Assembly (NCBI RefSeq): GCF_018350175.1
Contig: NC_058368.1
Span: forward strand, 90,274,001-90,338,000
Reading direction: 5' to 3'
Length of the DNA stretch: 64,000 bases
From: Felis catus
Lineage: Eukaryota
A model generated the notes under the pieces. The model searched no databases and was not told the origin of the DNA. It was given only the letters and a program-made list of their open reading frames with translations. The translations under genes and the position numbers were made by a program. Positions 7,448 through 64,000 of the stretch are shown here, piece after piece (the first letter of the stretch is position 1; each line of letters opens with the position of its first letter).

Positions 7448-7519
7448 CGTCGTCTTGGAGATGCCGCCAAGAAAGCCATCAGCAAATTGACAACAAGAAC
7501 AGTAAAAAAGGGTGACAAG
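7448..7519 (+). CDS. RNF130: RNF130 coding exon 4 (72 nt), RRLGDAAKKAISKLTTRTVKKGDK
   Basis: Pyrimidine tract and ttcatag acceptor, then AAG|gtatag donor. The translation matches the recalled juxtamembrane segment of RNF130/Goliath. Phase 0/0. Confidence 0.96.
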
Positions 7520-9335: not shown

Positions 9336-9418
9336 GAAACAGACCCAGACTTTGATCACTGCGCAGTCTGCATTGAGAGCTATAAGCAGAATGATGTTGT
9401 CCGGATTCTCCCCTGCAA
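9336..9418 (+). CDS. RNF130: RNF130 coding exon 5 (83 nt), [27 protein letters not shown](K), N-half of RING-H2
   Basis: ttttcattgcag acceptor and AA|gtatgt donor. Contains the CxxC...LPC start of the RING-H2. In frame with exon 4. Confidence 0.97.
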
Positions 9419-16837: not shown

Positions 16838-16934
16838 GCATGTTTTCCACAAATCCTGCGTGGATCCCTGGCTTAGTGAACACTGTACCTGTCCAATGTG
16901 CAAACTTAATATTTTGAAGGCCCTGGGAATTGTG
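16838..16934 (+). CDS. RNF130: RNF130 coding exon 6 (97 nt), (K)[33 protein letters not shown]-half of RING-H2
   Basis: ttttttccag acceptor and GTG|gtatgt donor. Completes C3H2C3 (HxxHxxC...W...CPxC). Phase matches exon 5. Confidence 0.97.
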
Positions 16935-18992: not shown

Positions 18993-19197
18993 CCAAATTT
19001 GCCATGTACTGATAACGTAGCATTTGATATGGAAAGGCTCACCAGAACCCAAGCAGTTAACCGAAGATCAGCCCTAGGTGACCTCGCCAGTGACAACTCC
19101 CTTGGCCTGGAGCCACTTCGAACTTCGGGGATCTCGCCTCTTCCTCAGGATGGGGAGCTCACTCCTAGAACGGGAGAGATCAACATTGCAGTAACAA
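18993..19197 (+). CDS. RNF130: RNF130 coding exon 7 (205 nt), [68 protein letters not shown]
   Basis: ttttgcag acceptor and A|gtaagt donor (phase 1). The peptide matches the recalled RNF130 cytoplasmic tail. Confidence 0.96.
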
Positions 19198-22100
19198 GTA
19201 AGTGGGGCCTTGTGCCCGGGTGCAGGGCAGATTCGCTGCTGTTTGGTGTGCGTTGATTGCTCTGGAGGACAGTTGAGGCAATCTCCTGGGCCGGTTGGTT
19301 AGTCTGTAACCGAGAAAGAAACAGGTATTTGGAAGGACAAAAGTTTGTTTATAATAAGGAGGTTGTGTATTTGTGTATAATAAATGGGAATCGCTTCCAT
19401 TTGACAAGTAGTTGTTCAGAGGTTTGTCTTAGTAGCCGGTTTCAAAATGGTTGCCTTGCAGATGGGCAGTTTCAAGGGTCATGCTGGGATGTGACCTCGG
19501 GCGTCACCTTGGGTGTGTTGTGTGACCGTGAGCACCAGTGCTCTCTGGTTCCTAGGCTGAGTGAAACACTAGTGCAGATTTGAACACACAAATGAACCAC
19601 TCTAGGGCAACTTGAGCCGGCTGCCGCTTACTTTATTTTACACTTTCTATGACGTTTGGTGTCTTGGCACTTACCTCTTTGGTGTCATGGTACATGAGGT
19701 GGGAGAAAAGCCAAAGGGTAATATGCCTTTAAAAACGCTCTTGCTCGTTATGAACATCTTGACTGTTGTGCCGTTGATGGGAAGAAAAGCAGTGCTCCGA
19801 GTGTTCTGATGGCCGTGCCTCAGTACGGTGTGAGTGGGCTGGCAGGCGTGTGTGTGGGCCTTGCGGACATTCACCCTGTAACAAGCCAGCTGTCTCCTCC
19901 AGTTCCATCCTCTACGTGATCTTTCCATCTAACAGCCCTTCGCCATCTTCCTTGCCACCACTCCGGTGCTGCCTTTTCCAGTACGTGCTGTTGCTTGCCT
20001 GTAGCCCTAAAGCTGATGGGGCCCTGCTTAACTCAGGGGGTCCATAGCCCAGATAAAGCTGTTGACATAGCAAGCCTCGTGTGGTCTCTTCAAGTGAAGG
20101 ACACATGTTTTTAACCAACCAAAACTTAGTAGTAGCAAACGACTCCCCAGGTTTTGTTCTAGCATCTGTCTAAACTTAGGGAGACTTCATTCAGTTACAA
20201 AATAAGGAAAACTATTCTTTGATACAGCTTGACTCATTTCTTACCATTTCCCCCGTGACGTGTTTCAACAGCTTTTCGTGTTTTCAGGTTTTATAGTGTA
20301 GATTTTTGAAAACTGATCTAGTAGCAATAAAGGAAACAAAGGTTCCTTGTTTATTAATGAGTTTTTGTAGGTCCTTCATTGATCGACATTTATTGAGCAC
20401 CTACTACTACATTAAGTTCTGATCCTGCTATATTTTATGCAGAACTGTCCTTTCAGAATCTCCCATTTTGATGATAAAAAATGTTACTTCATATATCATA
20501 TCAATCCCCATCAGTGGAATTTACACATGTGAATAAATAAACTCATGTGGTTAAACGAAACCAAAGCTCCCTCTCCTTTGCCTTCAAAGCTCTGTAGTGT
20601 CGTACCAGCTACAGTGCGCCCACTCAGCACCCACTGTGCAAGACACTGTGCTAAATACACACTGGGGTTCCGGCCTCAGCAGACTGCTGGACCCACCGGG
20701 CATTGTGATGGGGTCTGCTTCATTTTGGTTACTAGTTTTTATAACTGAAATGCCATACATCTATGGATGGTATGTTCAGTATGCAGAAACACAGACATCA
20801 CTGAAGTTCCAAAAGTTAGTCTGCTTATCATGTACAAAGGTCTCTAAGAAGAAAAAAATAACTCTGTGTTAAGCTTCTTGGTACTGATGACCAGTCATCT
20901 CTGAATTTTTTTAAATGCCAGGACACATTTTTCCTAACTTAAAATACATGCAGGTAAAGATGGTGGGTTTTGTATGGGTTCTTAAATGTTCATTTGGACT
21001 GAAATTAAAACCTTATAAATTTACTGTACTGATGAAGAATTTGTAATCCAGGAAGCAGTGGCTGCACTGTTAACCAAAAACCAAAGAGTTTGCTAAGCAT
21101 TATAACAATACAGATCAAGATGGCCAAGAAACGCTTCTAGAACAAACTCATCATCCTGGCAATCCTGAAGACCAGTTCTTAACGTTTTGAAGATCACCAC
21201 CTTTAAAATCCAGTGAAAGTATAACCTTTTTCTAGAAAAATCCCTAGGCACACACAATTTTTCACATTTGTAGGATTCATGGAAACCAGGCTGAGAAACC
21301 CTCACATTCTACACAGCTTTTACATACCCAACTTAGGCATTCCAAGTATAAATGTCTTCTCTCTGCCTTATTGTAGATACATAGGGGACTTTGCTGTGTA
21401 CCACCTTGTTGAACCAGCCCTAGTTAGTGTATATACTAGGAAATATTTTATAGATTGGTTCTCAGGTTATTTTCAAGGTTCGCAGTAAATAGTACTTCGG
21501 GGACGTTACCTTGACATACAGACTTTGAAAAGAAGGGAAAATATTAACTGACTTCCCAGATCTAGAGAAAGACTAGATAAAAAAACCCTAGAGTTCTGTG
21601 TTTCAGAGGTTTTTTTCCAACTCTTTGATGGGCCAGGTACCTTGTGAGTCACCTTCCCTTCCTACTTGTGCTCGACACAGCCAAAGCAGCCAGTGCTTGC
21701 TTCCCGCCGGCGGGAGTATGAAGGGTAGTTCTTCCCAGGAGAGAACCAATAAGATGTCCTTTGTAAATAAAGACTGTAAGTAAACCTGTGCCTAAGAGAA
21801 AAGAAGGTAGACCCGAATGCCACGGAAGGCCAGCCCGCGGACTGCGTGGAGTACCCACAGGACCTTTGGGACCTCTACTCCGTATGAGTGGCACAACCAT
21901 GCAGAAGTGACAGAATGAAGAAGGAAAGGTTGTAGAAGTATGGCTGGTCCACTTTACTGTCATCTAAAGTAGCCATTTAAAACTCTGTGTCCACGTGCAA
22001 TTTTATATGCATTATTTCTGCTGCACACTTTTTGGTGGCCACACTCTTCACAAACCTCAGGACCTTAACTGGAAGAAATGTTTGGGCCATGCTTTCCTTT

Positions 22101-22303
22101 CTCCCTTGCAGCTTTTCAACACTACTTCCACTAACCTTCTCCAGTTAGTAGCTCTCTGGCAAACCTCCTGCTTCACTTCCTTGGGCCAGTCTTGGCTTAC
22201 ACCTCCGTTGACGTCTGCTTCGTTGCATTTGAGGGAAATGTTGACATCGATTTGACTTAAGCCTTCTCCCCAGAGTGATTTCCTCCCTTTCCTTTGTCAA
22301 CAG

Positions 22304-22397
22304 AAGAATGGTTTATTATTGCCAGTTTTGGCCTCCTCAGTGCTCTCACACTCTGCTACATGATCATCAGAGCCACAGCTAGCTTGAATGCTAATGA
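22304..22397 (+). CDS. RNF130: RNF130 coding exon 8 (94 nt), (K)[30 protein letters not shown](E), second hydrophobic segment
   Basis: Long pyrimidine tract and caacag acceptor, then GA|gtaagt donor. Phase 1 in, phase 2 out. Confidence 0.95.
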
Positions 22398-23704
22398 GTA
22401 AGTAACAAATTATTTTTTGGATTGCATGTGCCAGATGATCCCAAGAAACCCTGTAATTTTCATAAAGATGGTGAAATTTGGCTTCCACTAGTTTCATATC
22501 CTGATGACGCCATACCTAGCAAAATAAGTGTATTTCTTGACCATATATTTTTAGTCAGTAACACAGATCGGGAGGTCACCTTGCTCAGCAACAACAGCTC
22601 ACTCGAGAAAAGATCCAAGGGCTTTTGTTAGCCACATGCTTAGAGTACAGCAGCGGTGTAATGCAAACCCCAGGGGAACCAGCACAGTCATAAGGTGCAA
22701 AGAATGTCTGTGTCCTGATCATTGACAGGAAAATCCCACTTTACTGTGTGCTCACCAGACTTGATCTGGATTCTTACATACTTAGCTTTTTGTGGAACAC
22801 TGGCACCCTGGCCTACAGTCAAGGGACAGTGACTTGGATGTTTAGCCTCTAAGAAAGAAGCAATCGGGAAGACCCACTGTTACCAAAGAGTAGGAAGATT
22901 GTCATGGGGGCAAAGAAAATAAGCTTATACGGTATTTCCATGGGGCAAAATGAGGACCATAGGGGTAGGTCACAGGAAGGCAAATTTCATCTCCGTAAGA
23001 GGAAGAACAGTTGTCAGTGAGGCTACTTACCCCGTGAGCTGGTTTGCCATGGGGAGTGCCCAGGACGAGGAGCACAGGAAGAAGCTGCATGTTACTTGTC
23101 GGGGCTGCTAGAGGTTGTTCAGAGTTAGGCAAAATTGGGCTAGATTACTCTTAAGTCCCATTTGGATCCAGTGATTTTCCAAGTAGCTTTCCATGGGGAT
23201 AAGATAAAACAAAGGTTTATTTTTTTATTATTTTTATTTTATTTTTGGTTTTGTTGGTTTTGTTTTAAATTTAGGGCATTGTAAAGTATTCTTTAGTCCT
23301 TTCTTTTACCAGTATCCATGAAAAAAAATTTTGAGATGAGAGTAGCCCTAGGACACAGCCCAAGTAGGAACCTAAAGTACTACAGGTGGCATTCACGTGC
23401 TCTCCACACTCACTTATGTCCTGGCATTTTAACTGATTCATAACCAGCCAAGCTCATGTAATTGATTTAATTGAACACTCCTTGTCCAACTGTAGAAACA
23501 AATGGGCAAGTAACCTGCACTTACCATGACATCATTTTATTATCTCTAACCTGATCTATTGCCTGGATACTTGTAAGAAGGGCCCTTTGGCATCCCTGAC
23601 ACGTTGGGAGGATGCCATGGTTGGTTGGCATTCTTCAGCCTTCAAGCAAGTAGTTGTGGCCAGTCATCCAATAGGCCAACCCACCTGATGCAGTTTTACT
23701 TCAA

Positions 23705-23937
23705 CATAGCACAGTGTGAATTGCTCAGGCTCTAGAGTGAGACATAACCTGAATTTGACTCCTTGCTCTTCCATTTTTTGCTTGGGAGACCTGGGCAGCT
23801 GTATTTATCTGAGGCTCATTTTAGTCATGGAGAAAACAAGAATAATGGTAGGAGCATACCCTAGGTTGTGTGAATTCGCATGTAAAGTGCTTAGCACAGT
23901 GCCTGGTACATAATAAGTGCTCAATAAATGTTAGCTT
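23705..23937 (+). mobile_element. MIR SINE
   Basis: 3' end gtaaagtgcttagcacagtgcctggtacataataagtgctcaataaatgttagct. Confidence 0.8.
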
Positions 23938-24549
23938 AATGGTTCCACCGAGATTCTTTCAAAGTTCTGTGAATGAGATGACCATCTGCCTTTATCATTT
24001 GGCAAATGATTTTAATTTTCTTCCATGAAACAGTATAGAATCATAGGAGCTCAGTAAGTGCCTATGATTCAGACCTGTGTGGAGGGAAGAGTTATTTCAC
24101 CTACAATCACCTCTTTTGCTTACTCTCATACCGACCCCATCAGAGTCCATGGTAGTGTAAGTCCACTTCTTAAAACTTTCACAAATGAGCAAAAACCAGT
24201 CACAGCATATAGAGGCACTCTGGGCACTTTTAGAGAATCATGATGTGATTTAATGGTCACCTTGCTGCCACTCAGGATCTGCCAGGTGCTCAGTTCATGC
24301 ATCAGATATTTTAGAGAAGGCTCACTAGATGTGTTACCTTTTAGAAATCAAAGTACCTGGGGCCATGGTACTTCAGTTCCATGCATAAATGCCTGCATGA
24401 CTCAGTCTAAGCATAGATCTTAGATCCATGTCTTAGGCCGACCCTTCTCCCATTAGCCTTTGTAGAAGGTTGATACTGCAGTTGTTCATTTGAGTATTAT
24501 TTCTGTGCCTTCAGTCAGAACTACTCTGAAGGACAATTTTCATGATCCC

Positions 24550-24552
<3 letters not shown>

Positions 24553-24595
<43 letters not shown>

Positions 24596-24610
24596 TGTGT
24601 GTGTGTGTGT
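24553..24610. repeat. Compound (GA)n(GT)n microsatellite
   Basis: Direct inspection. Confidence 0.95.
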
Positions 24611-26789
24611 ACAAATGAATGTATGAAAGAATGGCCACCAAAATATTAATGGTGATTATCTTAATTTAGTAAAATTGTGGGTGATGTTTTTCTCTCCTGT
24701 TGTGCTTTTATATGTTGATTTTTTAATACAACATGAAGTACTTAATATTTTAAAGGCCATTTGAATTGTGGAAGATAACGGAAAGATGATAGTCACTCTC
24801 ACTCAATGTCTCCTTCCCAAGAATGTTGATTAAAAAAATTCCTATGCAACTTTAATTCCAGAGAAAAGTTTCTAGCAAATAAATTTATAATTATTCTTCA
24901 TTAATGAATTCTTTGAAATCTGTCCTATTTCCCTTTTGCATTTACCAAAAACTTACAGCCAAAATGAGATTGTCTTCATTTTAATTGCTGTTTCTAATTT
25001 TCTAGGTAACTTCATCCATTTGTAAGATAGTCTTCTGTATAAATAGATTTCCATCTTTTTACATGTGATTTGTCTGGAAGTTGATAGTAAAATTCACCTC
25101 TACGCATACTACCTACTATTATAGTTTACTCTTTTGACAATGTCACACTGAACTTGTATATAGTGATTTCAGCAAGACTTTGACCCAGTCTAGTCACTGG
25201 TGAAACCCTGTGGGCAAGATGAAGCCATGTGGGCCACGTGTAAGGGCAGGCACGTGGAACCCACACAGGCCCAGGCATGGCTGCCGAGCACCGATTCCTG
25301 CCCTGCTAGGGGCAAAAGCACGCCCGCCTCCCTCACCATGTTCTGCACAGTGACCCAGGGCTTGTACTCTTGCCTGAACTCTGAGGTCAGTCAGAAGTCC
25401 ACAGATCTGAGGTCACCCCCTTCTATTGTATGAAATACTGTTTAAATACTCAACCGTGACTAATTGTGCCTTAATTTTTTAACACTGCAAACAAATCTAG
25501 TGAATGTTGAGGCTTTGCAAATATAAACAGGTTGGTAGTCAAAGAAGCAAATAAATGCAAGACAAATATATTTGTACATATGATCTTCTCATACCCCTGT
25601 TTCGTAGTACCTCAGTGAGCAAGGGTAGTGAACTTCAGTTCCCAAAGGAGGTTTACCGCTCTGCTTCTTTATTCAGAAAACCTCGTTATATCCCAACATT
25701 TACCAGCTTTTATCTGTACCAGCCTATTTGTCCCTCAACATAAGAAAAGATAGTGTTTTTCATTGTTGTTCGAGGAGCAAGTTGTAAGATAAGGTAGATG
25801 ATGCAGGAGGATTTGAGCCAAATGGGAGGTCCAGCTAAGTATCCTCCACAGCTCCTAGATTCGGATTCATAGAACTCGTGCCCAAGGATCTGCCCGGGAG
25901 TGTAGTCCAGACGTTCAAGATTCAAAACCATCTGAACCGGAGGAAGTGTGGTAAAATAACTGAAACAAGTATAGAATCCTGTAGCACAGCCCAAGACCAG
26001 GAAGCCTGGCTCTGCAGCAGGCCCGAGTTGTCCCCACCAATGTTCCTGGTGAGCTGGTGGCCTCTGAGGTGCAGTGATAGACATTTATGAGCCAGATCAG
26101 AGGAATTGATGTTTTTATTTGACCCTCTTTTCAGTATTTCTGAGTTATCTACACACACTCTTTAAGAGGAACATTGATGTATTTCAATATAAAAGGATCT
26201 GAAAATGTAATCATCTTTATGTCTTGGGGGTGCTTGGCTCAGAAGAGCAAAGATGAGGGTGATGTGAGGGATGTATTTGAAGGGCTCCCACAGATGAGAC
26301 TAGCTGCTGTTTACTGAGTGCTTCCTAAGAACTTACTCCTGTGTGGAACTCTGTTTCTACCCAGGTTGCCCCTGTAACACTCACAATAGTCTCGTGATGA
26401 CTAACCAGTGCATATGGAGGGGGCTTACTGTGTAGTTCAGGAGCTCTGGAGACATCCACAGAGGAGAGGTAGAGTAACACCTAATATAGGAAAGAACTTA
26501 ACTGCCAATCAACAGTGTCCATCCATGACATGGGATACCTTGAGAGCTGGTGAATTACCAGAACCTGCTTATGTGACAGAAACCACAAGGCCGGTGCTGT
26601 TCAGAGGCAGACCCTGTGTCAGGTGCAAGTCTGAGGCTCCTTCCAGTTCTGAGAGTCCCTCTTCAGTTGTCTGTCCTTTCCTAGGAGGGATCAGAGCCCA
26701 AGAAGAGGTATTGCATGCCGTGCTGGCTGGCTGCCTCTTTTAGAACCTTAACTATCAAAACTATTTTAAAACTTTTTTTTTTTTTTTTT

Positions 26790-26997
26790 ACCACCTGCCA
26801 CTGTAAGAACTACATTTTGTATTGTGACATATTCACATGTGTATAACTGAAACAAGTTTCACAAACACCTCCCTTACTACATCCTTATTCTCGGATCTCC
26901 TCCCTGTACCTTGTTGTTGTTAATACTGGTCATGAATTCCCACATTGATTTTTACAGTCCAGTAATAGTCTGCAGCCTGCAGTTTGAGAAACACAGA
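26790..26997. mobile_element. Probable hAT-Charlie MITE remnant
   Basis: Ends ctgcagtttgagaaacacag, a Charlie-type terminus. Confidence 0.4.
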
Positions 26998-28842
26998 TCT
27001 AAAGAATTTTGGATTTCTGGTTCTCAACAGAATACCTTTTGCTTAGTTACACTGGAATCCATCTTCGATTGTTTTATTTTTCCGAGACAGCCTTCCTTAT
27101 AGCAATGCCAGCAAAGATTTGAACTTGCCCCCAGTTTGATAATGAATCCACCTCTTTCTCCTCTCAGCCACTCTGAGCCTGAGATATGTACACAAAATAA
27201 CCTAAGTGAGGCCCAGAGGAGCTGCGTGACCCCTGAGAAATGCCATAGGAAGAGGGCCTGGGGTTCAAGCCCAGCATTTCTGGGCCCACCTCTTTCTTTA
27301 CACTGCTGGTCTTTGCCTGCTCCAGTAAGCCATTTAAGGGCTAGAAATAATGTAGTGGAAGAGGACACAGTGGGCTTTTTAGAAATGTGATGGCACAAAG
27401 AAAGTTAAAGGCAGTGGGGACCCCTGATTGGACTCCCTCACTGTCTTTTTTTTCCCCCACAAGTACCTTTAACCTTCTTATAGCTACATTAGCTTATAGT
27501 TTCTTAGAAGAGCAAAATTAAGTTTAAAAATCTTGACTCACCCATTGAAAGTTCTCCTACCTAATACTTTACTTTTCTGAGGAAATTTTATAAAATCGGT
27601 ATGTGATCTTCAAGTGGACTGCGATGAACAGTGTGAGGTGGTAAGCGGCCTTCCTGCTGTGCCCCGCCAACCCTCCCCAGGCACGAGGCCCTGCCCTGCA
27701 GGGGCGCTGTGGGAATGGGGCTGTGCTGCACAGTGCTCAGGCTTAGGCACCAGTGGGAGTGATGGCAGAGCCTCTCGGTGTCACACAGACCCAGGGGACC
27801 TGCTGCCCCCACCCTGGGGAGTTAACAGAGGCTTCCTGGAGAGAGTCACTCAGGAACCAGGCCAGGCATAATTTAGGACACAAAGAGGAAAAAGCAGAGC
27901 TGGTTCAGGGAGTGGTGGGCTTGATGTGTCTGCTGGAGGCAGTAGGCCGACTACAGAATCTGGACTGTGCCCTTATAAGCAGTAGGTAATATCTGAGGCC
28001 TTTTGGCACAAAGATGATTCCTTAGAAGTTGCCTTGGCCTGGGAGAGACTGGAGGTGGGAGGTTAAGTGACTACAGAGCTGAGGAAGGAAATCCAGAGAT
28101 GCTGGAGAGTTGTGTGGTGTCCAGAGATTAAGCGGTTTGAAGTGTGGGTCTAGAACTGAGCAGAGAGAAAAGAGCACTACTAGAGACCAGAATCGGGGTC
28201 CCAAGGAAGCGAACCAGCCGCGCGAAGCTTCGGGAAGCTAGGCCCGTCCCACAGAGCCAGGCTGTGGAGGGGTGGTGTCCGCCCCAGGGCAGAGCAGGGG
28301 GCTTCCCAAGACCCCGGGCACCGTCAGACACCGGATTTAGGGACACGTGCACATACAGTCTGGGGAAGTCCCGTAAGAGAGCCACACGTCCCAGAAGTCT
28401 ACACTTCACAAATTTTATTTCAAAATAAACATAGATACTCTTGTCCCAGGTATAAAGGGGGATCCTATTTTAAAGAGATAGCTGCAGATTTCAGGACACT
28501 CAGCACCAAGAACTTGCATTCAAACCAGGAAAAGTTGTGAATTGTATGATAATCGTCCCTGCATTTTTAAGCAGGATGCTGGTTAGCCTGTGCTTTTCCC
28601 TGCGTTCCTTTTGGGGGGACTGACACATTTCTAAGGTGACTGAGCCACTTGACCACAGATCTGAAGCTGCTGAGTTCAGGAAAATGCTAATGGCTTACTG
28701 ACTTTCCCAAATGGGGCTGGGAAATGGTGGGGGACAGCCCCAGCCCACTTTTCAGTTAAGATCACTTTCTCCGTTATTTTAAAATATTGGCCACTCCCTC
28801 TTAACTAATTCTTGACCTCTTTTTTTCCCTTCTATTCCACAG

Positions 28843-28858
28843 GGTAGAGTGGTTTTGA
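28843..28858 (+). CDS. RNF130: RNF130 proximal terminal exon, coding part (E)VEWF*
   Basis: ctaat branch-like sequence, pyrimidine tract and ccacag acceptor. G GTA GAG TGG TTT TGA gives the canonical ...NANEVEWF end. Confidence 0.93.
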
Positions 28859-29055
28859 AGAAGAAAAAAAAAAAAAAAACTGCTTTCTGACTGATTGCCT
28901 TGAAGGAAAAAAGAACCTATTTTTGTGCATCATTTACCAATCATGCCACACAAGCGTTTATTTTTAGTACATTTTATTTTTTCATAAAATTGCTAATGCC
29001 AAAGCTTTGTATTAAAATAAATAAGTAATAAAATAAAAAGACCGTGCCATTGAGT
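28859..29055 (+). other. RNF130: RNF130 proximal short 3'UTR (end approximate)
   Basis: AU-rich sequence after the TGA, ending in clustered poly(A) signals. Confidence 0.8.
29011..29037 (+). terminator. Proximal poly(A) signal cluster (ATTAAA 29011; AATAAA 29016, 29027, 29032)
   Basis: Four overlapping or adjacent hexamers with a TGTA immediately upstream. Confidence 0.85.
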
Positions 29056-52482: not shown

Positions 52483-52835
52483 ACCAGGCTCCTCCCTGAA
52501 CAGGTATTCAGGTGGAAGGTACAGAAGGAGGCCTCTACAGATTGCAAGGCCCTGGGTAGAAACCTTCATATTTGCAAGGCACCAGGCAGCTTTTGCTTTC
52601 AAAAGCTCCAAGGGTTAATCTCATAGGGACCCGAACATTGGGATTTACATGTTTCTAATGTGCTCAAACTAAGGGATGCCCAAATCCTTTCCATTTCTCT
52701 CGTGGTAAGATCCCCAAATGGAGATTCTTTAGAAAATATGATGCTTTGAAGGTAATGTGTCTTCTTTCCTCCGAGCTACATGGGAAATGGAGGCCTGATG
52801 ACCTATTAAGTGTGTGTTTCCTGTTCCTTTTCCAG

Positions 52836-52945
52836 GTGGTCACTTCTTTCATCGAAACTCCTTGTCTCCTCGGAGTCTGGTGTATGAAAGTGAATTCTCC
52901 ACAATCGAACCCTCTTTGGACATGTATGATGAGAACAAAACCTGA
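52836..52945 (+). CDS. RNF130: RNF130 distal alternative terminal exon, (S)GHFFHRNSLSPRSLVYESEFSTIEPSLDMYDENKT* when joined to exon 7
   Basis: Strong acceptor tttcctgttccttttccag. Phase 1 fits the exon 7 donor, the frame is open for 36 codons to TGA 52943-52945, and the sequence is unique. It resembles an alternative RNF130 C-terminus recalled from vertebrate isoforms. Confidence 0.82.
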
Positions 52946-55900
52946 TTTTTCTAAATGGGCTCTGGGGGGTCACCTCTTTTGTGATTTGATTTATGATCAC
53001 CTTTCTTATTTTGTATTCTTCTGTCAGTGTCCATTGTGGAAGAATGGCAGGGCTTTCCAAGCACAGATTGGGGCTCAGGGTTAAACTGCAAGGTTCCCCC
53101 AAGGTGAGGCTTTGAGGACAGTGTTATTGTCCAGGTGACCTTGGAGCACTGAAAACCTGTCCAAAGCTGGGCCAGGAATATGGGTCCCAACAAGACTGGC
53201 TGTTCCCGGAGAAGAGCAGGGGCCCAGGGGTCAATGTTGCATTGCAGACATGTCTCTGAGTAATTACATGCATATTCTGTGTCAGGGTGATGTTGGGGTT
53301 TTTAAAATACCTTTTGTGCTCCCCACTTACAGTGCATACTTAAGCTTGCAGGTGACACTCCTCACTGACGTGGGGCACAAGTTGCTGCTACGTGGCCCAC
53401 TCTCTATCTTCCTGTCTCTTCTCCTACTTTCTGTTGAGGAGCCTCTTGCCAAAGGTTCCTGAGAGAAAGGCTTGCCTTTCGTCCCTCCTCTGAGACTACC
53501 ACCCAGCACACCACGGTGGGGCTGCCGGCTGTGCAGGGCAGGCAGTCTTGCTCGTTGCCGTTTCCAGCCCCCCTCCTAGAGCATGACACAGGGGGCCGAG
53601 TGCTTTTGTGACCACCGAAGCCCTGAAGGCCCTGACCCCGAGGCCTGTGGACTTGTCTGCTTGGCATCTGCTGAGGTGTGAGGAGAGGTGGGCCCCACGA
53701 GGACAGCCTGGCAGTCTTCTCTGGATGACCTTGGAGTGATGGCCAATGGGTGTCAAGCCCAGAACAACTCTGAGTGTTTTCTTGAGATCAGACCACCTCC
53801 TTGCTGTTAGATACCAGATGAGCACCCCTCTTCAGTCTTACTAGTCTGACCCAGTTGCCTCCTACCAGCCTTGGCATGAAGAAGGCACAGGGGCTTACAG
53901 AAAAAGACACGGTGGCCAGCATGGCGGACATCAGGGACACACGTGCTCGCCCCACACGCCTGGGGATGACATCCAGTTAACGTCACAAGAAACATGTACG
54001 TGAAGAGTAATCCCAGCACAGAACCACGACAAGCAAATCTGTAAAACAAATTGACGCCTCCTTTTTGCTCAAGGACACACTGCAGATCAGCCTGTTTCTC
54101 CTATCAGTAGGAGCCATATAGAGATGTAAATGTGTTCAGGTCCTAGATCCTTCTTATGAGAATGGAAACTTCAGCCTCCATATGCTTACATCTGGCAGCA
54201 AACCACTCAGACCTGTGACCCCCCCCCCACCCTGTGATTTTTATTAACTCTGTAAAACAGAAATTCAAGGTGGACACTTGCCGTTTTTCCCTGTGCAGCT
54301 GGCTTCTCCCCTTTAAGTGTCTGTTCTCATCACATGTTGCTAGGATGCCTCAAAACACAGTTGCGCCCCCGAGCAAAACCCCTCAGAGAACCAGGGTGGT
54401 GATAGCCATTGGGAACGTCACCTCCCAGTGACCAGTGGCGTTATGTCCATAATCATTTGAGGCTAGAACAATGCAGGATTTTTAAGGTCTTAGCAGCTTT
54501 TTCTTTTTACCTTTAACCAAGGGCTTCTATTTGGTTCTTTTTTTTTTTCCTTTTTATTGTCTTTGTAGTACAAAAAATTTTTTGATAAACAGTTTCAAGA
54601 AAGCACTGTTCAGAAAGACAGGTTTGCCCCACTGGCTCTGTGGTGAGGGAATGAGTCTCAAGGAGATTAGAACTCAGTGTTCCAGACACACACCCAAGTT
54701 TGTGTTTGCTTTGGCTCATCCAACAGGGAAGATGGCTCAATTCTGACCGTGTTGTCTGTACCATGACCTTGTTTTCCTGCACCAGAACTGAGATCCCAGC
54801 AGGGCACTCTCTTCTGATTTGTATGGTCTCACAAAAGGGTAGACATTAAATTTTACTCAAGACATTCCTTTACTGAAAAGGAATGAAGTGACCTGAGAAA
54901 AAATTAAAAACTCAGACCCCTAAAAATCTACATATTAAAACATATTTGAATTTCTGGTAAATCTAGGACACGCCTTCACTGTCAAATAACCAAGGAGGCA
55001 TTTCTTACAGGGGAATTCACTCAGAATAGTGCTCTGGGTCCCAGCTTGACACCTTTTCCCTAAAAATTGAGGCCACTTTTCTGCTCGGCTACAGAACGTC
55101 CTGCCTTTGTCAGGAGAGACAGTAACTTCTATGTGGAGGTCATACACTCCGGGAATAGCAATATTTGTCCCAAATAACAGCCTCTTTGCTGGCAGCGGTG
55201 CTGGAGACTTCTCTGTGGAGCCACTCCAGGGACCCCAGAGAGCGGGGTAGGGGTCTGGGTGAGACATCCTTCTCAGCACCCCTACCTCTGAGAAGTTCGA
55301 GGTTTAGAAGCAGTTTATTGGCCATACAGGCCTGGTTGGGGTTATGGAGAGACCAGACCCTCTTCCCCAGCATATGAGGATCTCAGTTGTTCCAAGTCTT
55401 ACAGCCACAGTGGTTATTAGCCAGGAAGTGTAGATAGCTTCTGAATGTTTTTTTTTTTTTTTTGTGGGGCAGGGAGAGTTACTATTTGAAGAACAGAAGG
55501 GACAGAGGAACAAGTCGCTTACACCGCAAACCCTCTGTCCCTCCTGCGGACTGCTCTGAGCTGGGCCTGGCTCCCACCTCTTCCTCCCAGCATGGCCTCC
55601 ACCCCGTCCCCAGGCCGTGCCCGGTGCAGACCTCTCAGCATGCACCGCAGGATACTTGTGGAGTGGGGTCTGGGGTAGCCATAACCATCACCTGATCAGC
55701 CAGGAATTGGGTCGTTACAGTTAAAATGCAAACACTTAGGATTTGGTTGTGTTTCACTTCCAGAGTGAGCAACTGCCCATAGCCCTCTTTTGCTGATCCG
55801 TCAGGGAGAGGGAAGAGGCCACTGGCTAGGAAACAACAGAAGGGCCAGGCATGGCATCACCCAGTGGTGGGTGGGTAGTGGGTCTGTCCAGGGCTCCCAG

Positions 55901-58900
55901 CTTCTGCCCCCTCAGGGGAAGACCAGCTCTACTCCTGGGTGGTTAAAGACACCTCACCAAGTCTGGTGAGGCCGGCTTTTGAAGTAAGGCTCCATTCCCC
56001 AGCCCCTCCTCAGGCCTGACTCAGAGGAACTGCCAAGGGCCGCGCTTCCCTGAACACCCATTTGGACTGTACTGCCAGCTGCCCTGCTGCACCCAGCAGC
56101 CCAGCTTCCAAAACACGCAGTTGCTAAGGGTTTAAACAAAATAAGGTTACTGAATTTGACTGACCTGAAATTTCCTATGGGCTTTGTAAACTCTTCTCGT
56201 ATTCTTATTACCCCTCACACCCCATTCTTTCCATGATCTCCCGTTAAATGAAACTGGTTCCCAAAATGCTGTCTCCCCATTCACCTTTATCACTTAGGCT
56301 GTGGTTCTGCTATAGGCAAACAAGGAGGTGGTGTTAATGTCAGGTCACCCTGACAAGCGGTTGCTGTTCCTAAATGTCATGGAACAAAAACACTGGTTTC
56401 CAGGAAGTAGAATTTATAAGGAAAAGAGTAGGATTACGAGGCTAATTTCCTCAACAGACCTTTATTCAGTTCTCACTATTTGCTACATTCAGAGTTGAGG
56501 GGGCTCCAGGGATCATGAAGACTTAGGCTGTTCAAGAACACTGGCCAACTGTGCTGTGAGGCGAAATACGATGACGGTGAGTCATGGAGAGGGGGGTTTC
56601 CCCGGGGTGCAGAAGGAGGGGCACCAGGCAGCCATGAGAAGGCAGGATGGGAATGCACACTGCCCCGCCCCATGAAGACGAGGGATGAGGAGCAGGAGAC
56701 TGGCAAGGGCATGGGTCTCACTCCCAGGGCTGTGGGGAGGGCCCACATCTCTGGGAAAGAGCGAGAGTGGGGAGGGTATGGACCAGAGAGGCACTGCAAT
56801 GCCCAGGTGCTGAGGCCTGCCCCAGGGCCGAGGGCTTCACTGTTAGGCCCGAGCCCGGGGTCCCACCAGCCTGAAGAGGAAGTCCAGGTGACCAGTCTCG
56901 GTGACCCGGTAGGTGTTGGTGGGACCCAGGGAGAGCCCCTGTGGGGACACTTTCCACCTCCCTCTAGTGGGAGGCCTGGAGGTGTAGCTCTGGATCTCAG
57001 GCAGCCTGAGGTAAGGAAAGAGCAGTCAGAATTCCTGGGAAGCTGTGTTTGAAAGGAATAGGTCACCTAGACCTACCAAAGTAGCCCCCATGTAATCCCT
57101 GCCCCTCAGATGCCCCAAACCTTCTCCCTCCTCTCCCCTTCTCCTTCTTTCTCCTCCTGCCTCCCTCCCTACACCCTACACCCCTACACATACACACAGG
57201 TGTGTACACAAGACACACGCACTCACACACATATACACTCACAACAGTTAGACTCCCCAGAGAGGCTGTCCAGCCAGGCCTGGCGTTCCCTTCATTCAGA
57301 TGATGGTGGGAGCCAGAGTGGGGCTGAAATTGCCCAGTGACATGAGAGCCAGGCTTGGGAAAAAGCCCTGGGGACACCAACAGTTAAGGGATGAGCAGAA
57401 GGAGCAGGTGTCGGCAACCAATTTAGTTTAAACCAGTGGGTGGGACTTCCCTCTTCAAGAAAGGAGGTGATGGCTTGAGGGGCGGAGGAGTTGGCCCTCA
57501 CTCACTCCCAGAAACAGAGTTTGGACTGACTGACCTGAGCACTACTCCCAACACCCGAGGAAAGGATCGTTATCACAGGGCAACTGTTAGGACACCCACA
57601 GCTTGAAAGAAGTGTCTTCCCTGCTAAGGGCACTTGTCACAAGGGAGGTGCGTCTGCTTGTGCCTTGTGGCCTCGTTGGTAAATCATTCCAAAACCTAGT
57701 GGGAAAAGGAGAAAATGAGCGCATATGTTCACATGACATCCATGGATGTTTCGCAAGACTGGGAAACTTACACATTTTAAGTCTCGTAACATCAGAGGAA
57801 ATCCAGAAAGAAGGATATGGAGGTAAGGTGCCTGTGTTGGCTGCATGGAACTGTGCTTTGCTTACCATCCTGCGAAACAGCAGCAAGAGCCAAGTGTGGC
57901 AGAAGGGGGAAAGGTCTCCCCTCCCCTCCATGTCCCACTCCGAGACGGAGACCCTAACTAGCTGGCGTCTTCCCCGCCCCCTCTCTAGGGCTCCACCGGG
58001 TGCTGGTGGAGTCAGGAAGGTTGCCTTCTTTCTTAGGCGTATCCTGAAAGATCCCCACTGACTGAGCCTTGACAAGGAGGGCCCAGTTGGCACCCTAGTA
58101 GGCAGGGGGTGGTATCAGTCCCCTGTGATCTCGAGAGCTGCATCCCACCAGCCAGCCTCCAGTGACTGTGGAGGGGAAGGGGTGCCGGCAGCCTCAGCTA
58201 CTTAGGACGACATGTCTGCACCCAAGACTTGGCTCTCACTGTCTCACAGTCTAACAAGGCCCCATGGGGGCCCCCAGCCCACAACCCAGGACTTACCTGG
58301 GATTTGCCCTCTGGCAGTTCACTCTAGCTCAAGCCTTTTTTTTTTTTTTTTTTTTTTTTCTGTTTTCTTCACTGACTTGGGGGAGAAGGAAGATACTTTG
58401 TGACAAAAAAAAAAGAAAACAAATTTTCAAAATTTTGAATTTCATGAAAACTTGAGTATTAAACTTTCAGAAGGATTCAGTGCTGCTGGAATCCCTCAGA
58501 CCTTCTTCCTGGGCTTTCCTAGTTCCTCCCATTGAATCTTCTACATGCATATACCACAAAAGACCAAGGTTCGAGGTGGCACCAACCGGCCTGGCATCCT
58601 GAAAGGAAAGAGTTTCTCTGAAACAGCAGGCCCAAGGAGCGTTGCCAGGGGCCCAGAGACAGCTGCCAGAGCCCCGGTGCTCAAGCCAAGGGTGGTGTTG
58701 AGAATCAGCGGAAGCGCCTTTATAAACCACACACATTCTCCTTTGGTGGAAAAGCCAAGAGCTGGAGGAAGTCATTGGCACCCTTTTCTTTGCCGCAGTG
58801 GATCTTGAATCTCCTGGGACACAACCTTGAGGATCCCCGGCCCAGTCGAATGCTGGCCTGAAACGGCTCATTTCCCACCAGTCCACTGTCATCCGCTTGG

Positions 58901-60818: not shown

Positions 60819-61040
60819 TGGTGCCTGGGCAGCTCAGTCGGTTAAACATCTGACTCTTGATTTCGGCTCAGGTCATGAGCTCACAGTTGGTGAGACGGAG
60901 CCCCACATCAGGCTCCAGGCCAACAGCACAGAGCCTGCTAGGGATTCTCTCTCTCCATCTCTCTCTGCCCCTCCCCTGCGCGCGCACTCTCTCTCTCTCT
61001 CTGTCTAGAATAAGTGGATAAGCTTTAAAAAAAATTAATT
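60819..61040 (+). mobile_element. CAN/SINEC SINE
   Basis: Head, CT tract, A tail. Confidence 0.87.
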
Positions 61041-62455
61041 AAAATGGGCAAAGGATATAAATAGACATTTCTCCGACAAAGATGCTCAAATGACCATCAA
61101 GCACATGAAAAGATGCTCAACATTGTAAGTCGTTGGGGAAACATAGATCCAAACCAGATGATATACTACTTCATACCCACTAGGGTGGCTGTCATAAACA
61201 AGACAGACAGTAACGGGTGCCTGGGTGGCTCAGTCGGCTAAGCATCCAACTTCGGCTTAGGTCATGATCTCACACTCTGTGAGTTCGAGCCCTGCATCAG
61301 GCTCTGTGCTGGCAGCTCGGAGCCTGGAGCCTGCTTCGGATTCTGTGTCTCCCTCTCTCTCTGCCCCTCACCCGCTCACACTCTGTCTCTCTCCCAGAAA
61401 TAAACATTAAAAAAATTTGTTTAATAAAAAAAAAAAAAGACAATAACAAATGTTGACCAGATATGGAGAAATTGCAACCTCCACACATCACTGGTGGCAA
61501 TGTGAGGTGGTGCGGCTGTTTTGGAGAACAGTGTGGTGGTTCCTCAAAAGGTTCAACATAGGTTTACCATAGGACCCAACAATTCCACTTCTAGAAACAT
61601 GTCCAAGAGAACTGAAAACATGTTCACCCAAAAGCTCGTACACAGATGTTCACAGCAGCATTATTCATAACAGCCTAAAAGGGGAAACAACCCAAATATC
61701 CAACTGAGGAGTGGATAAGGAAAATGGGGCATATTAAAACAATGGGATATTACCCATAAAAAGGAATGAAGTACTGATACATGCTACAACATGAACCTTG
61801 AACACATGACAGTAAGTGAAAGAAGCAAGACACAAAGGCCACATAGTGTATGAGTTCATTTATATGAAATATCCATTTATATACACAATGGAATATTACG
61901 TGGTAATGAGAAAAAATGAAATATGGCCTTTTATAGCAACGTGGATGGAACTGGAGAGTGTGATGCTAAGTGAAATAAGCCATACAGAGAAAGACAGATA
62001 CCATATGGTTTCACTCTTATGTGGATCCTGAGAAACTTAACAGGAACCCATGGGGGAGGGGAAGGAAAAAAAAAAAAAGAGGTTAGAGTGGGAGAGAGCC
62101 AAAGCATAAGAGACTGTTAAAAACTGAGAACAAACTGAGGGTTGATGGGGGGTGGGAGAGAGGAGAGGGTGGGTGATGGGTATTGAGGAGGGCACCTTTT
62201 GGGATGAGCACTGGGTGTTGTATGGAAACCAATTTGTCAATAAATTTAATATATATATAAAAAAAAAAAAGAAATATCCACAATGGCCAAACCCAGAGGG
62301 ACAGAAATAGATTAGTGGTCGCCAGGGGTGGAGGGGGTTGGGGAATGGAGAGTGATACGTAAGAAGTTTCTTTCTGGAGTGATGGAGTTAGTGGTAATGA
62401 TTGCACAACTTTGTGAATGTACTAACACCAAACTGTGCACTTTAAAAGGGTGACT
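61041..62455 (+). mobile_element. Old L1M 3' fragment with a nested SINE (61216-61438) and a nested young L1
   Basis: aaatgggcaaagg...agacatttctcc...aaagatgctcaaca; ttaccataggacccaacaattccacttctag. Confidence 0.85.
61876..62270 (+). mobile_element. Young felid LINE-1, 5'-truncated (ORF2 C-terminus, 3'UTR, poly-A)
   Basis: Open ORF2 end IYTMEYY...WMELESVMLSEISHTEKDRYHM...CGS*, G-rich 3'UTR, A tail, and TSD gaaatatcca at 61866-61875 and 62271-62280. Confidence 0.92.
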
Positions 62456-62776: not shown

Positions 62777-63880
62777 ATGAAGGAACAAAATAACCCTTTA
62801 CCTCCTCCTAAGGTGTTAACAAGTACTCCAAATTCCTGAGGGTAGATTACTCCCCAGAGAGCACATTATCAGTTCAAGCTTACAAGGTCTTAAAGAAAAA
62901 TGGCCTCTGCGCCTTGATAAGGTCTCAAGCAATACTTCAGAAGACTTTTGATCACTCTGGCTGTCAACCATAAAACTGCCTATTTTACTTCCTTCTATCA
63001 TATTAGATTTCTGAATGCTGGTGACAGAAACCCAATTGGCAACCAGCTAAAGCCTCCCAAGATGATCCCAAAGTGCCCCGATGGGTTTGCCCGCCTGCCG
63101 TTTCCTGGGTGGGCTCAGGCCAGCAGCATGATCCTGCAACCAAACTGGACCTGGACCTTCTGGATTGCCCCAAATATAATTAACAGCTCCCTCTTTCACT
63201 CACAAGTGTCGGTGTTTGTGAGGGGGTGGACCCTTACAGGCCAGCACTGGGAAAGCAGAGGGTCCACATCCTCTACCCATGCTTATGCAGAAACCCCTAA
63301 TGTCCCAGGGCCAGCCCCATCCTGATCCTTGGACCACCAAGCCCCAGGGTCCCTCTCTCTCATGTGTGGGGACTGCACGTATTTCTATGTACCCTGCCAG
63401 CTTCGAGGCTCCCTGACAACCCGTCCTCAGCTCCTGGAGGTTTTCCTAGTCTTAGGTCCCAGCGTCCGAATTCTGAAAATGGTGGCAATCGTCTAACCCC
63501 TTCCAGAAGCCCTTTGCAAAGTTAATATGCCTTGGGGTGCACAGCACAATTAGCCGGACGTGTATTTGCAAATGCTATTTCTTTACATTTCCCCCACAAA
63601 CCCTGGACAGGTTTTCACAGAACGCCAGGGCCCCGGCTCTCTGCGCGACCAGTTCCTTTGGCCTGTGCACTCGGCCATTCTGGCCAGAAGCCCATGGCCC
63701 CGGGGCTGGGCTGTCGCTCCTTAGATGAGACTACAGTGCCGGGCCTTGGGCGAGAGGGAGGCGGACCCGGCCGGGTCAGGCCGGCCTGCGGCGGGAGGCC
63801 GGGGGCAGTGGGGCGGGGCGGGGCCCGGGGAGACGCGCGCGCCCCGCGGGCCCCGAGCCGGCGTTTGCTGGTCCGCGCGC

Positions 63881-63894
63881 CCGCCAGGGGGCGC
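63881..63894 (+). promoter_or_regulatory. CTCF core motif CCGCCAGGGGGCGC
   Basis: Near-perfect match to the CTCF core consensus. Confidence 0.7.
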
Positions 63895-63905
63895 CGCCCG
63901 GTCAG

Positions 63906-63932
63906 CCCGCCCGCCCCGCCCCGCCCCGCCCG
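63906..63932. promoter_or_regulatory. Tandem Sp/KLF GC boxes (CCGCCC)n
   Basis: cccgcccgccccgccccgccccgcccg; a second set gggcggggcggggc lies at about 63810-63824. Confidence 0.7.
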
Positions 63933-64000
63933 CTCGGCTCCGGCGCGGCGGCGACGGCGGCGGCGCTTCCGCCTGGCCGGCCTCGGCCCGGTGCGAGCGG

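Follow-up and report, generated by a model that had tools for sequence, protein, structure and literature searches.

RNF130 (Goliath) is a ubiquitin ligase of the PA-TM-RING family, as that family is defined in PMC4021871. The canonical protein of 419 aa is composed of a signal, a PA domain, a first transmembrane segment, a RING-H2 finger and a linker encoded by exon 7, all of which, like the total length, are common to the isoform examined here. The difference lies in the last 36 residues, which carry a second hydrophobic segment in the canonical protein and form a polar, Ser-rich and acidic tail in the isoform, whose own ligase activity is predicted. For the 419-residue human RNF130, 2 transmembrane segments are listed in Table 1 of PMC4971459. 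A PA domain, one span, a cytosolic RING-H2 finger and a free polar tail are found in RNF128/GRAIL, RNF149, RNF13 and RNF167, which is the architecture of the polar isoform, and a profile search gave no sequence match of the polar tail to any of these four proteins. The ExxxLL motif of the Godzilla branch, as given in PMC8834447, is absent from the polar tail (0/56 distinct tails).

A likeness is also found in USP19, another ubiquitin-system enzyme, whose last exon comes with or without a C-terminal transmembrane segment in the forms USP19-ER and USP19-CY, for which opposing functions have been reported (PMC9842591). USP19 moves between the ER and the cytosol, whereas the RNF130 switch is probably one span versus two and involves the skipping of a cassette exon. 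Because the first transmembrane segment is kept in both RNF130 forms in 12/12 of the same-species pairs that we compared, RNF130 is not an anchor switch of the USP19 type. According to a review (PMC10903450), RNF130 ubiquitinates LDLR, moves it off the surface and controls its availability. The ligase is also recruited via its ectodomain by antibody and nanobody degraders (10.1101/2022.10.31.514624 and PMC11626814), and the ectodomain that they bind is common to both forms.

The window, meaning the whole stretch of 64,000 nt of Felis catus DNA that was analysed, contains RNF130 exons 4-9 on the plus strand (Table 1); exons 1-3 are upstream, and no match to them was found within the window. The residues encoded by exons 4-7 are identical to those of lynx records P0137 and P0184, of ferret and of a 384-aa carnivore record (152/152), and nearly so to those of dog, cattle and macaque (150-151/152); these shared exons match RNF130 records and identify the gene as the RNF130 orthologue. 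The RING-H2 finger, which follows the membrane span, is encoded in the window by exons 5-6, and PF13639 was found at 331-373 of the polar-tail lynx record. The PA domain (PF02225, 153-232) and the first transmembrane segment (hydropathy peak 2.52 at 264-282) were scored on lynx record P0137. In the PDB, 34 matches covered the PA and RING parts only, none of them extending over either tail.

Table 1. Positions of RNF130 features in the window (exon numbers are those of the earlier note).
Feature	Position	Strand	Remarks
RNF130 exon 4	7448..7519	+	72 nt; AG/GT ends
RNF130 exon 5	9336..9418	+	83 nt; first half of RING-H2 finger; AG/GT ends, open frame, tblastn
RNF130 exon 6	16838..16934	+	97 nt; second half of RING-H2 finger; AG/GT ends, motif search
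RNF130 exon 7	18993..19197	+	205 nt; last exon common to all endings; phase-1 donor, GT next
RNF130 exon 8	22304..22397	+	94 nt; cassette encoding the second hydrophobic segment; phase-2 end
RNF130 exon 9, proximal last exon	28843..29050	+	4 further codons, stop 28856-28858; short 3' UTR
Distal acceptor, polypyrimidine tract and AG	52817..52835	+	
Distal alternative last exon, coding part	52836..52945	+	polar tail after exon 7; 16 residues in the other frame after exon 8
Distal exon, probable 3' UTR	52946..54960	+	about 2 kb; end inferred from hexamers

An earlier note on this DNA had proposed a distal alternative last exon of RNF130 with a strong acceptor at 52817-52835, placed 24 kb past the canonical stop and encoding a tail as long as the canonical one. 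These points hold: the tract, the AG and the phase are as described, the exon is conserved, and the distal acceptor is 23,978 nt from the canonical stop, with an intron of 33,638 nt between exon 7 and the distal exon. Joining exon 7 (19197) to 52836 gives 36 residues and a TGA stop at 52943-52945, and the canonical tail (19197 joined to 22304-22397 and 28843-28858) likewise computes to 36. The distal exon has its own 3' splice site, in frame with the upstream donor, and a stop inside the exon. The tails encoded in the window have masses of 4123 Da (canonical) and 4222 Da (distal), and in mammals the two forms differ by 99 Da. An acceptor and an open frame alone prove nothing, because in a chance control between 29,100 and 64,000 as many as 5/29 AG sites with an equal tract had a phase-1 frame of at least 35 codons. 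That the distal exon is real is settled by conservation and not by the raw splice signal.

The 3' end of exon 9 is approximate and was inferred from hexamers (ATTAAA/AATAAA at 29011, 29016 and 29027). After the distal stop the first poly(A)-type hexamers are ATTAAA at 54845, 54903 and 54934, where the background is 2.02 per kb and the downstream T content is low (0.22-0.32), which supports a poly(A) site weakly; there is no AATAAA between the distal stop and 60279. The arrangement suggests a distal 3' UTR of about 2 kb with a putative poly(A) site near 54.9 kb. No Rfam match was found in 52960-56000. A possible 104-nt intron (52924-53027), with a GT donor, a long pyrimidine tract and an AG, extends across the distal stop. 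Three gene models from Old World monkeys (P0042, P0043 and P0138) splice out this intron and end in a basic tail of 55 residues, the frame of which maps to 53029-53103 of the window at 64%. This may be a prediction habit, because the models of other species use the donor with unrelated ends.

RNF130 has four endings, produced by exon 8 as a cassette together with two last exons, and the exon 7 donor (19197) can be spliced to any of exon 8, exon 9 and the distal exon. The order 7-8-9 gives the hydrophobic tail of 36 residues and the order 7-distal the polar tail of 36 residues. When exon 7 is joined to exon 9 (19197 to 28843), a stop follows after one residue, giving a single-pass form of 384 aa without a tail; records of this length exist for carnivores, marmot and elephant, and the same join in non-mammals continues through 9-50 unconserved residues. 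The fourth ending, 7-8-distal (22397 joined to 52836), keeps the hydrophobic segment and adds 16 residues in the other frame, 48 in total. Tails of 48 residues are present in horse, bat and deer records (P0110, P0182, P0185 and P0186), and those of horse and bat have ends that map best to the distal exon (11-13/16 identical; scores of 54-62 versus 24-26 for the next site). Exon 8 sets the number of hydrophobic segments, so that a polar tail requires both the skipping of exon 8 and the use of the distal exon. The change had been described beforehand as a swap of last exons; the replacement of a hydrophobic tail by a polar tail of equal length stands, and the plain swap does not, since exon 8 must also be skipped. 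In a cyprinid gene model (P0215) the hydrophobic tail runs on into the polar tail, which suggests the same exon order in fish.

As had been claimed from the sequence, no second hydrophobic segment is present in the isoform. The best 19-residue Kyte-Doolittle mean (KD19) is 2.25 for the canonical tail of the window and -0.07 for its distal tail; across species it is 2.20-2.29 in 25 distinct exon-8 tails and -0.35 to 0.46 in 51 distinct polar tails. In 12/12 chosen same-species pairs the two forms differ only in the last 36 residues, with a second hydropathy peak in the exon-8 form only. Structures predicted with AlphaFold2 gave a helix at 388-417 for the exon-8 tail (pLDDT about 61-80) and no structure for the polar tail. 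As both models are poor (mean pLDDT 55-57, RING below 50), the low confidence of the polar tail is weak evidence of disorder.

The guess that the isoform might be annotated proved right, for it is listed in many vertebrates, mostly under the NCBI name 'E3 ubiquitin-protein ligase RNF130 isoform X2', all named records being computer-predicted. Both forms stand side by side in NCBI for dog/fox, cattle, gerbil, lynx, eel, conger and frogs, as they do for gar, coelacanth, lungfish, paddlefish, sturgeon, cod, platypus and echidna. The XP_025302571.1 group (dog/fox, 419 aa) has the same distal exon, the junction after exon 7 and the tail of 36 residues, and the same polar-tail form is represented by VFV47485.1 (lynx), XP_028905599.1 (platypus), XP_006631961.2 (gar) and XP_005988332.1 (coelacanth). 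These records show nothing different in sequence from the exon in the window, and they are predictions that carry no comment on function. Among the polar-tail records found are those of macaque, snub-nosed monkey and capuchin, and none is human. Uninterrupted polar-tail frames of 416-427 residues were present in Logan contigs of 2,528-3,145 nt (P0045, P0048 and P0207); because the gene has long introns, these contigs, from frogs and a fish, are probably spliced mRNA. For Felis catus, splicing from exon 7 to the distal exon is predicted. Among the sequencing runs listed for this DNA, 14 guessed to be RNA contain 0.93-0.97 of the words of 52700-54700 and 6 others 1.00, figures that were given no weight as evidence. 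In other Logan contigs of about 1 kb (P0270 and P0281-P0285) an exon-7-like end is joined to a decayed polar tail, and this diverged frame may represent a processed pseudogene derived from the polar isoform.

The polar-tail isoform is accordingly already known as a database isoform and is ancient, apparently without study of its function. No description of it was found in the full-text literature, a provisional result as most subscription papers lie outside that search. That literature included PMC4021871, PMC9380329 and PMC8834447; PMC10903450 and PMC4971459 name no isoform in the passages on canonical RNF130, and a term search of PMC12911345 gave no mention of isoform or splicing. PMC2838864 lists RNF130 among the isoform changes predicted for breast tumours. 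The gene belongs to the nine top-ranked isoform switches of human myogenesis in PMC12489129, where the text leaves the isoforms unnamed and 10 text supplements gave 0 matches. PMC3564943 reports, downstream of human RNF130, a poly(A) site that is conserved and unannotated, with its position in a figure and 0 matches in 4 supplements. The figures and sheets of PMC12489129 and PMC3564943 may concern the distal exon. New in this analysis are the age of both tails, the wiring of the four endings, the conserved motifs and the case for the polar form as the one typical of the family. Among the early Goliath papers, those of Guais et al., one is said to report several protein forms.

A search across vertebrates with the distal frame, which the earlier note had proposed as a check, revealed the polar tail in RNF130 from mammals to bony fish. 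Of the 52 candidates for the frame itself, 50 proved to be hits, and RNF130 records from mammals, birds, reptiles and frogs made up most of them. Searches with the frog and gar C-termini, for which the best 120 of 127 and the best 120 of 169 matches were listed, added salamanders, caecilian, lungfish, coelacanth, bichir, paddlefish, gar, bowfin and teleosts. All of the residues encoded by the exon itself (35/35) are identical to the ferret and dog/fox records. In a set of 330 proteins, made up of cluster representatives and members and so not independent draws, exon 7 is followed by the polar tail in 116 and by the hydrophobic tail in 105; a further 67 end differently, and 42 lacked an anchor. 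The polar tail is exactly 36 residues long in 106/116, and its identity to lynx over these 36 positions is 36 in platypus, 34 in chicken, 32 in lizard, 30 in toad, 29 in lungfish, 24 in coelacanth, 24 in gar and 22 in bichir. Conservation is about as high over the adjoining last 30 residues of exon 7 (18-28/30 identical).

Comparison of the 56 distinct polar tails of 36 residues showed that F4, F5, P12, R13, N34 and K35 are invariant and that 16/36 positions are kept at 90% or more. The conserved parts are Ser-Pro-Arg within a Phe-Phe/Arg/Ser block, a pair of glutamates, and an end that is acidic and contains Tyr; S9-x-S11-P-R is present in 54/56 tails, and all 56 end in Asn-Lys-Ser/Thr/Val. 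None of the classical sorting motifs searched for (YxxPhi, acidic dileucine, DxxLL, NPxY, PDZ I-III and dilysine) occurs in any of them (each 0/56). The end of exon 7 (19160-19197) carries a Thr/Ser-Pro-Arg motif in 86/106 polar-tail records, so that such sites occur twice in the polar form, at a spacing of about 20 residues. A LIR core was considered and rejected as not conserved (only 12/56 tails). Hydrophobic spacing resembling an export signal was found at one position in 48/56 tails versus 817/11,200 shuffles; as the tails are related and 30/56 have a proline inside, it is read only as a conserved hydrophobic pattern. A search of the ESM Atlas with the gar tail gave no usable match. The polar exon was absent from all 57 loci of a metagenome scan, which included a short bird-like contig (L027) with exons 6-8 and the same splice sites.

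Since both tails occur in ray-finned and lobe-finned fishes, both are older than that split. The first 25 residues of the exon-8 segment are 23-24/25 identical from lynx to reedfish and eel. In five acanthomorph fishes (P0289, P0292, P0295, P0296 and P0304) the segment falls to 12-20/25 relative to gar while the polar tail remains at 26-31/36. The segment is still hydrophobic in four of these species and was not found in the Myripristis models examined; the cod segment has 12/25 identity, yet it is hydrophobic (KD 3.18). The polar tail is thus the better-kept tail in spiny-rayed fishes. The hydrophobic tail has 36 residues in 74/105 proteins, and 15 further exon-8 models stop at 32 residues because they end with exon 8. 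Total length is equal in the two forms of all 12 chosen pairs and of gar, lungfish, paddlefish and platypus, and unequal in coelacanth (423/424), opah (427/428), beardfish (426/427), cod (429/433) and Centroberyx (420/430).

Our preferred reading, which we consider probable, is that the polar form is a real, used isoform and that the two forms differ in sorting, turnover or partner binding. The most direct challenge to it would treat the distal exon as a relic or low-level by-product in Felis catus. The polar-tail records are indeed predictions, yet the identity of 35/35 residues to dog/fox and ferret, a lynx tail identical to that of platypus and the intact acceptor, phase and stop in Felis catus make this very improbable. 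The exon could instead matter as RNA, the tail being secondary and the long 3' UTR serving stability, location or microRNA control. If the cluster at 54845-54934 is the end, the 3' UTRs differ about tenfold (about 2 kb versus 0.2 kb), and the poly(A) site of PMC3564943 mentioned above would agree with such a role; a secondary peptide, however, would not keep 16/36 positions so strictly, with a fixed stop, across bony vertebrates. We find this reading improbable as an alternative, and control through the UTR is in any case compatible with a role of the protein. The equal length of the tails, 36 residues in most lineages (106/116 and 74/105), might point to an ancient duplication of the terminal exon or to selection on tail length. 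Profile-profile alignment of the two tail sets with hhalign gave a probability of 0.1% and E of 0.41-0.71, and within species only 2-4/36 positions are identical, on which grounds homologous terminal exons were rejected. The polar tail is moreover a single exon and the hydrophobic tail two, and the lengths part by 1-10 residues in 5 species. Either origin seems quite improbable to us, and coincidence followed by separate conservation is enough to account for the equal length.

A further alternative, to which we give an even chance, reverses the usual order: the polar form would be the original one, exons 8 and 9 a later gain and 'canonical' a label for the cDNA cloned first, and the polar form might dominate in some tissues or lineages. 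The four distant Goliath-like full frames (L001-L004, 38-48% identity) all have long polar tails that lack a second hydrophobic segment, with KD of at most 1.12 (4/4), and the contrast between the two tails in the five acanthomorphs and Myripristis points the same way. The end of RNF150, which may resemble the polar tail, would also fit. On the part of PMC4971459 cited above (Table 1), RNF149, RNF133, RNF128, RNF13 and RNF167 have one transmembrane segment each, but RNF150 is listed there with 2. The absence of exon 8 from fish models may reflect annotation gaps, and the polar-tail profile has no match in the distant relatives. The order of origin is unrooted because no shark, lamprey or paralogue with a polar tail appeared in the searches made. 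These were word-based searches (two of them with the best 120/127 and 120/169 matches listed) and a profile search of 1.84 billion representatives, with 51 matches of which 10 were looked up; the absence is weak evidence. The comparison speaks for the polar, single-pass form being the ground plan.

To return to the used isoform, the following mechanism may be proposed. RNF130 would have kept two alternative 3' ends since before the split of ray-finned and lobe-finned fishes, and the choice of poly(A) site together with the inclusion of exon 8 would set the ending. In the exon-8 form, the cytosolic RING would be followed by a second helix, probably spanning the membrane again, that ties the cytosolic loop back to it and leaves about 13 residues in the lumen. 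A transcript that runs past the proximal poly(A) site and has exon 7 spliced to the distal exon would encode a single-pass ligase with a free, probably disordered cytosolic tail. A short, conserved polar tail of fixed length with Ser-Pro-Arg and a fixed C-terminus is typical of a phospho-regulated linear motif combined with a terminal binding site. The near-invariant Ser-Pro-Arg in the Phe-Phe/Arg/Ser block is a likely site for a proline-directed kinase, and the acidic end with its Tyr, which always sits at the very C-terminus, is likely to be bound by a partner; phosphorylation and a sorting role of these motifs are guesses. With ectodomain and RING common to both forms, it would be sorting, turnover or partner binding that differs. 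A bolder version, which we put forward tentatively and think unlikely, has two ligases indistinguishable on gels: an ancestral single-pass form whose conserved tail is a new type of kinase-controlled signal for sorting or for partners, and a two-span form that arose by exon gain no later than early bony vertebrates. Regulated switching between the two would change where the ligase is located and which membrane proteins are removed.

Given the equal length and a difference of about 0.1 kDa, the polar form would be missed on blots and in experiments with a single cDNA. If the bolder version is true, work on LDLR control and on RNF130 degraders has averaged over two different enzymes. No new system is opened by these results; they leave a narrow question, namely which ending works and what binds the conserved tail.

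Beyond the distal exon, the next gene probably has its promoter in a CpG island at 63501-64000 (GC 0.72, CpG o/e 0.91). TBC1D9B is suggested as that gene by a hamster model (P0119) in which it is fused to RNF130. Finally, the repeats near 61-62 kb are presumably carnivore SINE and L1 copies: within 61040-62450, we take the stretch at 61800-62270 to be a young-looking L1 3' end with poly(A), apparently inside an older L1 piece and flanked by carnivore-type SINEs.
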